Assembly: GCA_036272935.1 (NCBI GenBank)
Contig: DATAXP010000075.1
Coordinates: 87,085 to 151,084 of the forward strand
DNA length: 64,000 nucleotides
Source: Pirellulales bacterium
GTDB taxonomy: Bacteria; Planctomycetota; Planctomycetia; Pirellulales; PNKZ01
Direction of reading: 5' to 3'
Part shown: positions 39,224 through 41,334 of the stretch, one piece after another
Position numbering within the stretch: position 1 is the stretch's first letter
Layout of the letters: each line of letters begins with the position of its first letter
Position numbers and translations under genes: made by a program
Notes under the pieces: generated by a model
What the model was told of the DNA's origin: nothing
Database searches by the model: none
Seen by the model: only the letters and a program-made list of their open reading frames with translations

Positions 39224-41334
39224 ACGCGGCCCTCGAGGTGATGGGCCTCGGCTTCACGTTCCCGGGGCGCACGTCGCAGGCGCTCGACCAAATCAATTTC
39301 ACATTGCCGACGGCGAGCATCACCGTCGTCGCCGGACGCACCGGCTCGGGCAAAAGCACGCTACTGCGGGCGCTGGCCGCTTGGATTCCTCGCCACAGCG
39401 CGGGGCGCATGACCGGCAGCGTCACGGTCGGCGGGCTCGACACGCGCACTGCGACGACCGCCGAATTGGCACGCACGGTCGGCCTGATGCAACAGTCGAT
39501 CGATGACCAACTTTGTGCGACGACCGTCGCCGGCGAAGTCGCCTTCGGCTTGGAGAACCTGGCCTTGCCGGTCGACGAAATCCACGGGCGAGTCGGCGCT
39601 GCACTGGCGCGCTTCGGTCTGGCCGGGTTTGAGAGCCACCAGACGCGGCAACTCTCGAGCGGGCAGCGGCAGCGACTGCTTTTGGCGAGCCTCTGGGCGA
39701 TGCGGCCGCGCGTGCTGGTGCTCGACGAACCGCTCAGCCAGCTCGACGAGCAAGGGACAGCCGCTCTGTTGGCCGAGCTGCGACGGCTGCGCGACGAAGG
39801 GATCACGATCGTCGTGGCCGAGCATCGCGTCGATCAGTTGTTGCCGATCGTCGATCGGGTGCTGGTGCTGGAAGGCGGGCGACTTGTGGGCGCTAAACCG
39901 CAAGCGATGGTCGAAGCGGTCACGGTTGGCTCACCAATCGCTGGCGGACCGACCATCGTTGCGGCCGAGCGCATCGCGGCGCGATATGGTGCATCGTCGC
40001 CGCCGGTGTTTTCGGACGTAACGCTTTCGGTGGCACATGGAGAGCGGATCGCGATCGTGGGTCCCAACGGGGCCGGCAAGAGCACGCTGCTAAAGGTGCT
40101 GGCCGGGATCATGCCCCCGGCAATGGGCGAAGTGCGTTGGTGCGACGACGAAGCCGGCAGGCCACCGGTCGGATTGGTGCCGCAGAACCCTGACCTGACA
40201 CTGTTCTCGAATAGCGTGCGTGACGAACTAGCGTTCGGCCCGCGACAACTCGGCTTGGACGAGGCCGAGATTGCGCGGCGCGTGGCGACGGCGGCGGATG
40301 AGTTTTCGCTCGATGATTTGCTCGACGAGCCGCCGCAGGGGCTCAGCCAGGGGCAGCGCTTGCGCGTCGCCTTGACGGCCGCGGCGACGCTCGAGCCGCA
40401 AGTGTTGCTGCTCGACGAACCCACCATCGGCCAGGATCCGGAGCAGATGCACCGGTTGTTTAGCGCGCTGGTGGCGGCCGTCGAGGCGGGGCGCATCGGG
40501 GCGATTGTCTTCTCGACGCACGATGCTGAAGTGGCGCGGCGGTATGCGACACGCATTCTCCCTCTCCCCGCCGCGGGAGAGGGCCGGGGTGAGGGGGGCA
40601 TGAAGCGTGTACCCACGTCGCCCCCTCACCCTAACCCTCTCCCGCAAGGGGAGAGGGGAACTGGTGGAGCGCTTGAACGGCTGGATGCGCGGGTCAAGAT
40701 TGTGTACCTGTTGGCCCTGTCGCTGGTTAGCGTGACGGTCGATTCAGCGCGGGCATTGCTGATCGTCGGGGCGATCGGCATGGCGCCGGTGTTCGCGCTG
40801 CGCTGTGGATGGCGGGCCCGGGCGCTCGTTGTCGGTGCGATTGCCGCGACGATTTGGGGCGCAGTGCTCTCGCAGGCGATGTTTTACAGCTTCGAGCCTC
40901 GGACGCCGTGGATGACGATTGCCGGCGTGACGCTGTGGCGCGAAGGAGCACGGTACGGCCTGCTCCAATCGATGCGGCTGGTGGCGACGACCGCCTCGGG
41001 AATAGCCGTGTGTCTATCGACTAGCCCCGAGCGGCTGTTGGCGGCGATGACGCGCCTCGGCTCACCGGCGACGCTCGCGTTCTTGGTGACAACCGCGATG
41101 CGGTTTCTGCCGACGATGGCCGACGAGTGGCTGGCGATCCGGCTGGCTCACCGGCTGCGCGGCTACCGCTTCCGCCCCTGGAAATTGGCCGCGTGGTGCA
41201 TCGAGGCAGGGATGTTCGCGCCGTTGGTGGCGGCGGCGCTGCGGCGGGCGACGACACTGGCGGTCAGCGTCACCACGCGTGGACTCGATCCGCGGGCGCC
41301 GCGGACGTACTACGATCCGCCGTCACGCGGTTAA
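39220..41334 (+). CDS. Fused ECF transporter protein: two ABC ATPase domains (EcfA-EcfA') plus a C-terminal transmembrane EcfT/CbiQ domain
   Basis: Walker A (GRTGSGKST), signature (LSSGQRQRL) and Walker B (VLVLDEP). A second set follows (GPNGAGKST; LSQGQRLRV; LLLDEP). The C-terminal roughly 230 aa are polytopic (…RVKIVYLLALSLVSV…, CbiQ-like). The linker between the second ATPase and the T domain (GEGRGEGGMKRVPTSPPHPNPLPQGERGTGG) is encoded by the palindromic repeat at 40561..40661. Confidence 0.8.
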   Translation: MNAALEVMGLGFTFPGRTSQALDQINFTLPTASITVVAGRTGSGKSTLLRALAAWIPRHSAGRMTGSVTVGGLDTRTATTAELARTVGLMQQSIDDQLCATTVAGEVAFGLENLALPVDEIHGRVGAALARFGLAGFESHQTRQLSSGQRQRLLLASLWAMRPRVLVLDEPLSQLDEQGTAALLAELRRLRDEGITIVVAEHRVDQLLPIVDRVLVLEGGRLVGAKPQAMVEAVTVGSPIAGGPTIVAAERIAARYGASSPPVFSDVTLSVAHGERIAIVGPNGAGKSTLLKVLAGIMPPAMGEVRWCDDEAGRPPVGLVPQNPDLTLFSNSVRDELAFGPRQLGLDEAEIARRVATAADEFSLDDLLDEPPQGLSQGQRLRVALTAAATLEPQVLLLDEPTIGQDPEQMHRLFSALVAAVEAGRIGAIVFSTHDAEVARRYATRILPLPAAGEGRGEGGMKRVPTSPPHPNPLPQGERGTGGALERLDARVKIVYLLALSLVSVTVDSARALLIVGAIGMAPVFALRCGWRARALVVGAIAATIWGAVLSQAMFYSFEPRTPWMTIAGVTLWREGARYGLLQSMRLVATTASGIAVCLSTSPERLLAAMTRLGSPATLAFLVTTAMRFLPTMADEWLAIRLAHRLRGYRFRPWKLAAWCIEAGMFAPLVAAALRRATTLAVSVTTRGLDPRAPRTYYDPPSRG
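40561..40661. repeat. Second copy of the composite GGGAGAGGG/GGTGAGGG palindromic repeat, sitting in-frame inside the ECF fusion gene
   Basis: ccctctcccc gccgc gggagaggg; ggggtgaggggg…ccccctcaccc; ccctctccc gcaa ggggagagggg. Same architecture as 36212..36335. Confidence 0.5.

Follow-up and report, generated by a model that had tools for sequence, protein, structure and literature searches.

BoxC/PIT/TM motifs have been known since the 1990s and show extraordinary conservation; to our knowledge, no function has been agreed for them. The names BoxC, PIT (potential intrastrand triplex), TM or TMECO (G/C-rich triplex motif) and HPG1/HPG2 (G-quadruplex-hairpin motif) denote one motif, known from more than 260 genomes besides that of Escherichia coli (Holder et al., 2015, PMC4666352; Kaplan et al., 2016, PMC5100583). 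E. coli K-12 contains 23 BoxC copies, in which the second loop is TTA (type A) or CCG (type B), and five inverted pairs, each formed by one A and one B motif (PMC4666352). All 23 copies were reported to be intergenic, with 'none within' open reading frames (ORFs) (PMC4666352), and the second study likewise found the motif in E. coli only between genes (PMC5100583). Small deletions and rearrangements are frequent at BoxC/TM loci among E. coli strains, which makes these loci hot spots, and according to earlier work PIT/BoxC has neither promoter nor terminator activity in E. coli (PMC4666352). A term search of the main text of PMC4666352 gave no mention of Planctomycetes. Here we analyzed a 64,000-nt stretch of a contig from a Pirellulales bacterium (the window, to which coordinates without a locus name refer), which carries two inverted BoxC pairs. 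One lies between fadB and fadA homologues, and the other lies in frame inside a fused energy-coupling factor (ECF) transporter gene, where it encodes the linker between the second ATPase domain (A') and the membrane domain EcfT (T). A rearrangement involving this pair probably replaced the junction of two genes and yielded one in-frame A-A'-T gene with a repeat-encoded tether.

Other short palindromes resemble these copies in part. REP/BIME and REPIN-RAYT elements are likewise short GC-rich extragenic palindromes, often arranged in inverted pairs and often placed between the cistrons of an operon. However, REP sequences have a GTAG/CGTC-type head and are species-specific, whereas the window copies have no visible GTAG head and are conserved across phyla. 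In REPIN-RAYT systems the gene for RAYT, a Y1 transposase, is flanked by REPs, while in the BoxC family DUF559 genes are nested in pairs in other genomes. Rickettsia palindromic elements (RPEs) and ERIC are likewise short palindromes found in frame in genes, where the encoded peptide is compatible with the protein fold (PMC10969869). RPEs are about 150 bp long, occur only in Rickettsia and form loops within single proteins, whereas the window repeat replaces a gene junction and gives a multi-domain fusion. The likeness to RPEs is one of behavior only, and the window element is fully accounted for by BoxC.

The repeat in the ECF gene is 98 nt long (40560-40657) and consists of two perfect 9-bp hairpins on either side of a longer central stem. 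Its left half (40560-40595, + strand) is a type B half-motif with the structure CCCTCTCCC-CGCCGC-GGGAGAGGG-CCG-GGGTGAGGG, whose blocks (CCCTCTCCC at 40560-68, GGGAGAGGG at 40575-83 and GGGTGAGGG at 40587-95) and CCG linker are those of E. coli TMECO type B. The right half (40623-40657, - strand) is a type A half-motif with a TTA linker and reads CCCTCTCCC-CTTGC-GGGAGAGGG-TTA-GGGTGAGGG on the - strand, or CCCTCACCC (40623-31)-TAA-CCCTCTCCC (40635-43)-GCAAG-GGGAGAGGG (40649-57) on the + strand. The central spacer of 27 nt (40596-40622, + strand) contains an in-frame ATG (40600-40602, codon 461) with a GAGG-rich stretch 5' of it, and its length is within the usual range of the 'empty' pairs found in other genomes (14-140 nt).

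Both halves match exactly the BoxC pattern of CCCTC(T/G)CCC, a loop of 3-6 nt, GGGAGAGGG, a short loop and GGGTGAGGG, and the left CCG with the right TTA gives the inverted A+B pairing of E. coli. The copy could be aligned over all of its blocks with hrpB-mrcB, one of the E. coli pairs: the three blocks (CCCTCTCCC, GGGAGAGGG and GGGTGAGGG) are identical, the second loops are CCG and TTA, and an A and a B motif are paired across a short spacer. Judged by sequence, both elements of the window belong to the already described pan-bacterial BoxC/PIT/TM intrastrand-triplex repeat. Because the blocks are identical to E. coli oligonucleotides that have been tested, the window copies are likely to form a triplex or G-quadruplex as single-stranded DNA. 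No Rfam family was found for the element, with sub-threshold matches to animal microRNA hairpin models only.

The match to a pan-bacterial motif ruled out a genome- or lineage-specific REP or miniature inverted-repeat transposable element (MITE). An earlier reading of the window made from its letters and ORFs alone (the sequence-only reading) had called the element REP/MITE-like; a palindromic repeat it is, but of the known pan-bacterial kind and not of a genome-specific one. In place of the terminal inverted repeats and target-site duplication of a MITE, the pair is itself an inverted repeat and has no duplication. No transposase is linked to it as a mobilizing autonomous element; DUF559 genes, which are nested in BoxC pairs elsewhere, would be putative candidates for such a role.

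The spread of the motif was examined by a scan of one genome per GTDB species with a 27-base composite pattern, which occurred in at least 120 stretches. The phyla among the matches listed were Pseudomonadota, Chloroflexota, Planctomycetota, Acidobacteriota, Cyanobacteria, Verrucomicrobiota, Actinomycetota and candidate phyla, and the 120 motif-selected loci used below are these listed matches, so that their number is a lower bound. The genome of the window was not among the matches listed. In two Pseudomonas loci (L013, 232-756, P. crudilactis; L037, 2784-3070, P. chlororaphis), half-motifs were embedded in longer, array-like tandem units; the period in L013 was about 151 nt, with the conserved unit flanks gacgtacc..cgcaagaca.ctcggtcggcc.

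The pattern CCCTCTCCC-N2-8-GGGAGAGGG was matched three times in the window and not at all in 100 dinucleotide shuffles, and a looser three-block motif gave four half-motifs, forming two inverted pairs, against none in 50 shuffles. As RNA, the ECF copy folded with -87.6 kcal/mol and a z-score of -8.3 (Watson-Crick folding). These data bear on the idea that the linker is an ordinary low-complexity Pro/Gly linker of an old A-A'-T fusion and that its palindromy is coincidental. Other fused homologues do have Pro/Gly/Ala-rich linkers, but the window DNA, whose arms and E. coli-type linkers are exact, matches a composite motif that recurs in many phyla, the syntenic relatives described below are unfused, and the window protein stands apart from the fused homologues in a tree. 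The shuffle counts, the cross-phylum scan and the E. coli alignment refuted this idea, and we give it practically no credence. The sequence-only reading had seen a palindromic repeat here and not an ordinary linker, which the arms, shuffle counts and fold z-scores bear out; the element's sequence, coordinates and translation were also as it had given them, with positions within 1-3 nt.

The gene that contains the repeat (39220-41334, + strand) encodes a protein of 704 amino acids (aa) that matches database entry P0001 with 100% identity. Pfam identified two ABC_tran domains (E = 9e-51) and a CbiQ domain (E = 1e-19) at residues 485-696. The protein consists of a first nucleotide-binding domain (NBD1, about residues 1-228), NBD2 (about 245-448), the repeat-encoded linker (about 448-481) and the EcfT/CbiQ domain (484-704). 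In both NBDs the Walker A, signature, Walker B and H-loop motifs are intact in a sequence alignment, and there are PDB matches to CbiO and EcfA. Two motif-bearing ABC ATPase domains together with a CbiQ/EcfT domain make up an ECF energizing module, and all of them are present in this one chain. The gene directly upstream (38537-39223, + strand) overlaps the ecfA start and encodes a conserved membrane protein without a Pfam match, which is syntenic with and 39-44% identical to ORFs located 5' of ecfAA' in three related loci (L002, L003 and L005). From this conservation its product is probably the S-like, substrate-capture component.

The translation across the element, ...ATRILPLPAAGEGRGEGGMKRVPTSPPHPNPLPQGERGTGGALERL..., is free of stops. 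Around the repeat the protein reads ...ATRIL-PLPAAGEGRGEGGMKRVPTSPPHPNPLPQGERG-TGGALERL..., and the peptide that spans the fusion is ...ATRILPLPAAGEGR...QGERGTGGALER.... The sequence-only reading had noticed that the frame is not broken. Of the three + strand frames, two are closed within the element and the gene uses the third; a continuous A'-element-T frame would therefore arise from a random event about 1 time in 9. We built an AlphaFold2 model from a shallow alignment of 20 sequences, which gave a mean pLDDT (per-residue confidence) of 81 and a pTM (overall confidence) of 0.72. The model was confident for NBD1, for NBD2 up to the strand at 445-448 and for EcfT, while the repeat-encoded interdomain linker (40579-40665, + strand, codons 454-482) was a coil with a pLDDT below 50 and was the sole long stretch of this kind. 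The approximately 33 Gly/Pro-rich residues encoded by the repeat are thus predicted to be a disordered linker between NBD2 and EcfT.

The ancestral state of the locus was examined in L002, L003 and L005, which are planctomycete metagenome contigs. In all of them the acyl-CoA synthetase gene (fadD), fadA and fadB lie on one strand, and the S-like gene, ecfAA' and ecfT lie on the other strand in the same order as in the window. ecfAA' and ecfT are separate genes in all three (about 50% identity), and in L002 and L003 the ecfAA' stop and the ecfT start overlap by 4 nt in an ATGA-type junction. No BoxC half-motif was present in the three loci, neither at the ecfAA'/ecfT junction nor between fadA and fadB, which agrees with the expectation that orthologues would lack the linker. 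The EcfT domain of the window is 45-51% identical to their stand-alone EcfT proteins. Since the syntenic relatives have separate genes without the repeat, the fusion is lineage-specific. In L005 itself, the 5' end of ecfT (7560-7720) is apparently frameshifted and the FadB gene (2704-4852) is split into two ORFs of 594 and 140 aa; these disruptions may be sequencing errors of the assembly or real decay.

Comparison with the relatives showed that the repeat was not simply added. In nearly all homologues the segment ...VLxxGRLLADGxPxELL... follows 'ATRxL', and this segment is absent from the window protein. In the CbiO structure 5x3x, the last beta-hairpin, ADRVA-LFRTGRVLAEG, aligns to the repeat-encoded ATRILPLPAAGEGRGEG. 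The N-terminus of EcfT is about 13 residues shorter in the window than in L002. Because the A' tail, the stop/start junction and the first T codons are missing, the event was, on these alignments, not a clean insertion: the palindrome took the place of about 210 nt. The claim of an in-frame insertion therefore stands for the frame but not for the insertion, as about 59 A' and about 13 T residues are gone. Native '(A/G)EGR' codons resemble the GGGAGAGGGCCGG part of the repeat, so microhomology at the left junction is possible.

A-A'-T fusions are also found elsewhere, namely in P0002, in P0003/P0004 and throughout a distant clade that includes P0007 and P0034. These natural fusions share with the window protein the NBD-NBD-EcfT order and a low-complexity tether, but their Pro/Gly/Ala-rich linkers are 60-130 residues long and are not BoxC DNA, whereas in the window the repeat supplies a tether of about 33 residues. 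The NBD2 tail is present in nearly all of them, with the exception of P0034. A neighbor-joining tree of the AA' region, which is crude and has no support values, placed the window protein amid mostly unfused planctomycete proteins and apart from P0002, P0003 and P0004. Because the other fusions have non-BoxC linkers and are placed separately in the tree, the A-A'-T fusion has arisen several times, with the window fusion as an event of its own. The sequence-only reading had suggested a recent fusion. It is lineage-specific, but its date is bounded only as after the split from relatives with about 50-57% identity; the bound estimated from these identities is so loose because the protein database has no closer relative. 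In P0100, another fused homologue, the linker (columns about 560-660 of alignment A2) carries two direct copies of the peptide GGGWQEGRSPPTAPFGGTSPTRGEGG... and may be derived from a different DNA repeat. Because this linker holds a peptide repeat, the comparison suggests that the NBD2-EcfT junction could be a general landing zone for repeats.

Taken together, we consider that the ancestor would have had ecfAA' and ecfT as separate cistrons that abutted or overlapped at their stop and start codons. A rearrangement at or beside a BoxC pair would then have deleted about 210 nt, comprising the last beta-hairpin and tail of NBD2, the stop/start junction and about 13 ecfT codons, either after an earlier insertion of the pair or in a single event. 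The palindrome would have been left behind, read in the one frame that is open and in register with ecfT, and for this reason the ribosome would read through to give one A-A'-T polypeptide, in which about 33 Gly/Pro-rich repeat-encoded residues would serve as a flexible cytoplasmic tether. The deletion hot spots at E. coli BoxC/TM loci provide a precedent for BoxC instability as the putative cause of the deletion (PMC4666352). On the sequence and the structure model we lean towards a functional fused protein, with less assurance than we have in the rearrangement itself.

Several observations weigh against this account. NBD2 is not complete, as its last beta-hairpin and C-terminal region are missing, and relative to L002 about 59 residues of the A' C-terminus have been lost. 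The EcfT part stops about 48 residues before the EcfT of L002 and L003, so that an extra C-terminal helix is absent, and the downstream neighbor of the fused gene differs from that of the syntenic loci; because of these two differences the locus may be decaying. The hairpin of -87.6 kcal/mol within a coding region could hinder translation or draw RNases. No target-site duplication was found, as there is no direct repeat in the flanks of the ECF copy (ACGCATTCTC | AACTGGTGGA) or of the fad copy (CTATTAAACC | ATATCGATTT). The same fusion was not found in any close relative in the protein database, where the best non-self matches were 47-54% identical, and the sequence itself is a metagenome assembly contig.

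These points matter most for the possibility that the fused ORF is a young pseudogene, formed by a BoxC-associated deletion in a dispensable ECF transporter and continuous in frame by luck. The losses in NBD2 and at the EcfT C-terminus, the changed downstream neighbor and the instability of BoxC loci would all be expected of a pseudogene, and a chance of about 1 in 9 for an open, in-phase junction is not negligible. However, no stop interrupts the 704 codons and no catalytic motif is damaged, the three domains are folded confidently by AlphaFold2, and the upstream S-like gene is intact. Moreover, neither loss is confined to the window protein: the GRLL... segment is missing from the fused homologue P0034 too, and the C-terminal helix from EcfT as called in L005. 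We therefore regard a pseudogene as unlikely, but as the most serious competitor of a rearrangement that left a working fusion. At the 3' end of the gene, the end of EcfT with its stop (41290-41334) overlaps a gene of 216 aa on the opposite strand (41323-41973, -) that is absent from the syntenic loci. Together with the shortened EcfT, this neighbor indicates that the ECF gene was rearranged a second time, at its 3' end.

The junction could also be an artefact in which the assembler collapsed or mis-joined the sequence at the GC-rich palindrome while the genes are really separate. The protein occurs on one contig only, of a metagenome-assembled genome (MAG), and strong GC-rich hairpins are difficult to sequence. 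Against this, the junction is in phase on both sides, the flanks are colinear with the orthologous genes, and the 151-kb contig is otherwise syntenic. A collapse would also need two repeat copies about 300 nt apart in coding sequence, which was seen in no relative. An artefact thus seems highly improbable.

It was also considered that the element acts at the RNA or DNA level, as a processing site or as an internal start (GAGG-ATG, 40600) for a separate EcfT, with the fusion as a by-product. The very stable structure would suit such a role; GAGGGGGG lies about 5 nt before the in-frame ATG at codon 461, and the ancestral arrangement was translationally coupled. Judged by these signals, a separate initiation of EcfT at ATG 40600 could in principle occur. 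However, read-through into the fusion is unavoidable because there is no stop codon before this ATG, the putative Shine-Dalgarno sequence and the ATG lie in or beside the central stem, and in E. coli PIT/BoxC acted neither as a promoter nor as a terminator (PMC4666352). We consider this role improbable, less so than an assembly artefact but more so than a pseudogene; replacement of the A'/T junction by the BoxC pair to give a single gene is the reading that we prefer.

The second repeat lies in the fad operon on the - strand. It occupies the 171-nt spacer that separates the upstream cistron, which encodes a FadB-type enoyl-CoA hydratase/3-hydroxyacyl-CoA dehydrogenase (36360-38510, -; Pfam ECH_1, 3HCDH_N and 3HCDH), from the downstream cistron, a thiolase gene of the FadA type (35031-36188, -; Pfam Thiolase_N and Thiolase_C). 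Its left half (36213-36260, + strand) is a half-motif of a long-linker subtype, CCCTCTCCC-TTT-GGGAGAGGG-18 nt-GGGTGAGGG, and its diverged right half (36293-36334, - strand) is CCTTCTCCC-TCT-GGGAGAAGG-13 nt-GGATGAGGG. Compared with the BoxC blocks, the fad copy has at most one mismatch per block and long second loops, and as RNA it folded with -77.3 kcal/mol and a z-score of -5.7 (Watson-Crick folding). In the right hairpin (36314-36334), both arms, CCTTCTCCC and GGGAGAAGG, differ from the consensus, and their pairing is preserved (100% complementary). The variant arm of this hairpin was also seen in the long-linker subtype of Alphaproteobacteria (L081 and L034).

The sequence-only reading had reported the same element at both places. 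A member of the family is indeed present between the fadA and fadB homologues (36213-36334), and on sequence the two copies share one family and one architecture. However, they are of different subtypes and not recent copies of each other: the linkers are 3 nt in the ECF copy and 18 and 13 nt, with hairpin-forming ability, in the fad copy, whose right half has diverged, and the mean column identity of the two copies over both strands is about 63%. The long-linker subtype was also found in Bradyrhizobium (L034), in other Alphaproteobacteria (L042, L081 and L101) and in a Phycisphaeraceae MAG (L078), and it is not described in the E. coli BoxC work. The fad copy is an ordinary intercistronic BoxC pair of the fadB-fadA operon, like those of E. 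coli pstB-pstA and yihR-yihS. It agrees with the intergenic location given for BoxC, which is descriptive and not structural, while the ECF copy is inside ORF 39220-41334. Thus, whereas all BoxC copies of E. coli K-12 are intergenic, the ECF pair is translated in frame and fuses two cistrons, in a planctomycete host. The family is also linked to local deletion and rearrangement, in E. coli and probably in the window.

We examined 160 motif matches in genome loci for ORFs that span them, and the candidates were validated with Pfam. Most matches were intergenic, and several were inside genuine genes. In Mfd (L010:1065-4649, -), an empty BoxC pair is in frame at residues 345-407, between positions 359 and 375 of E. 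coli Mfd. In the NAD-dependent DNA ligase LigA (L095:3173-6157, -), an empty pair encodes residues 361-389, between positions 159 and 162 of E. coli LigA. In the E. coli proteins, the residues on either side of each of these insertions are adjacent or almost adjacent. An empty pair also lies between the ATPase and nuclease domains of a phage terminase large subunit (L059:1676-4003, +). By analogy, these copies offer a precedent for tolerance of the ECF copy. A single ORF of L110 (129-4043, -) comprises a molybdopterin-binding (MoCoBD) dehydrogenase subunit and a cytochrome c subunit with a BoxC copy as the bridge, which is an apparent second case of cistron fusion. Methionyl-tRNA synthetase (MetRS) genes of two Betaproteobacteria also contain in-frame copies (L007:2-2161, +; L025:1777-4515, -). 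Other candidates were rejected: in GlnE (L117) the sequence 3' of the motif looks out of frame; in L082 (Pyr_redox) and L101 (BPD_transp_1) the motif is upstream of the first domain and probably 5' of the true start; and about 18 more ORFs across a motif, none with a Pfam domain, are likely to be spurious and due to high GC content.

In-frame BoxC copies are not reported in the BoxC literature that we found. The element itself is known, and what is new is the planctomycete host, the recurrence of in-frame copies in other bacteria and the in-frame, gene-fusing context, the last because both E. coli studies place the motif only between genes. The locus indicates that a BoxC pair can be part of a translated gene and tether two domains of the protein, and that a BoxC-associated deletion can merge adjacent cistrons, which are translationally coupled in two of the three relatives, into one multi-domain gene. 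This would be a route from 'selfish or unstable DNA' to a new protein architecture, similar to that of RPEs, yet with a repeat family that spans phyla.

The MetRS copies differ in content from the empty pairs. In L007 and L025 the inverted half-motifs bracket a DUF559 domain (PF04480), of a Vsr-like PD-(D/E)XK nuclease family (PMC1189080). The BoxC-DUF559-BoxC cassette as a whole keeps the metG frame, and in the encoded protein it separates the anticodon-binding region from the C-terminal tRNA_bind domain. Filled cassettes are also in frame in an NTP_transferase gene (L147:2422-3597) and in the S-subunit gene of a type I restriction-modification system (L146:2-1546). Spacers between inverted halves were bimodal, with empty pairs like those of the window at 14-140 nt and DUF559-filled pairs at about 300-470 nt. 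DUF559 genes were very often nested within BoxC pairs among L007, L021, L025, L048, L063, L074, L105, L126 (E. coli ycjD) and the L127-L206 set. In E. coli, a BoxC motif lies 168 nt downstream of ycjD, a DUF559 gene, and a GGGAGAGGG block overlaps the ycjD stop codon. A six-frame hidden Markov model search of the window found no DUF559.

Among the matches listed, DUF559 was directly beside the motif in 9 of the 120 motif-selected loci. The reverse test used 80 metagenome DUF559 loci (L127-L206) that were chosen by protein patterns alone, the patterns being derived from three sequences. A half-motif was present within 200 nt of DUF559 upstream in 38 of the 80 loci, downstream in 41, on both sides in 28 and on at least one side in 51. 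The background more than 400 nt away was 0.066 half-motifs per kb; at this density, about 0.6 per side would be expected. The association of BoxC with DUF559 is thus strong statistically and hints at how the repeat spreads. We found no description of it in the literature, of which our coverage was incomplete, so that a prior description is possible.

It is conceivable, and we put it forward tentatively, that a widespread selfish element with DUF559 cargo has inverted BoxC pairs as its terminal repeats, as its empty sites or as its homing targets, and that empty pairs, including that of the ECF gene, are MITE-like derivatives of it. Because the arms are stop-free in one frame, empty and nuclease-filled cassettes can persist in frame, as in MetRS, Mfd, LigA, terminase and the NTP-transferase. 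If this is true, the cassettes of a selfish element could also weld neighboring cistrons into fusion proteins. It would also explain why a 35-nt motif is conserved from E. coli to planctomycetes, and it would supply a mechanism for the 'genomic instability' reported at BoxC sites. The link between BoxC and DUF559 offers a testable answer to the spread of the motif across Bacteria and is the most promising thread of this analysis.

Further downstream of the fused ECF gene, the window contains a very large ORF (41989-49059, -) of 2356 aa in the ORF list and 2353 aa in the JGI call. Its Pfam matches include UvrA_inter and UvrA_DNA-bind, each listed twice, and it resembles a duplicated or tandem UvrA-like protein.

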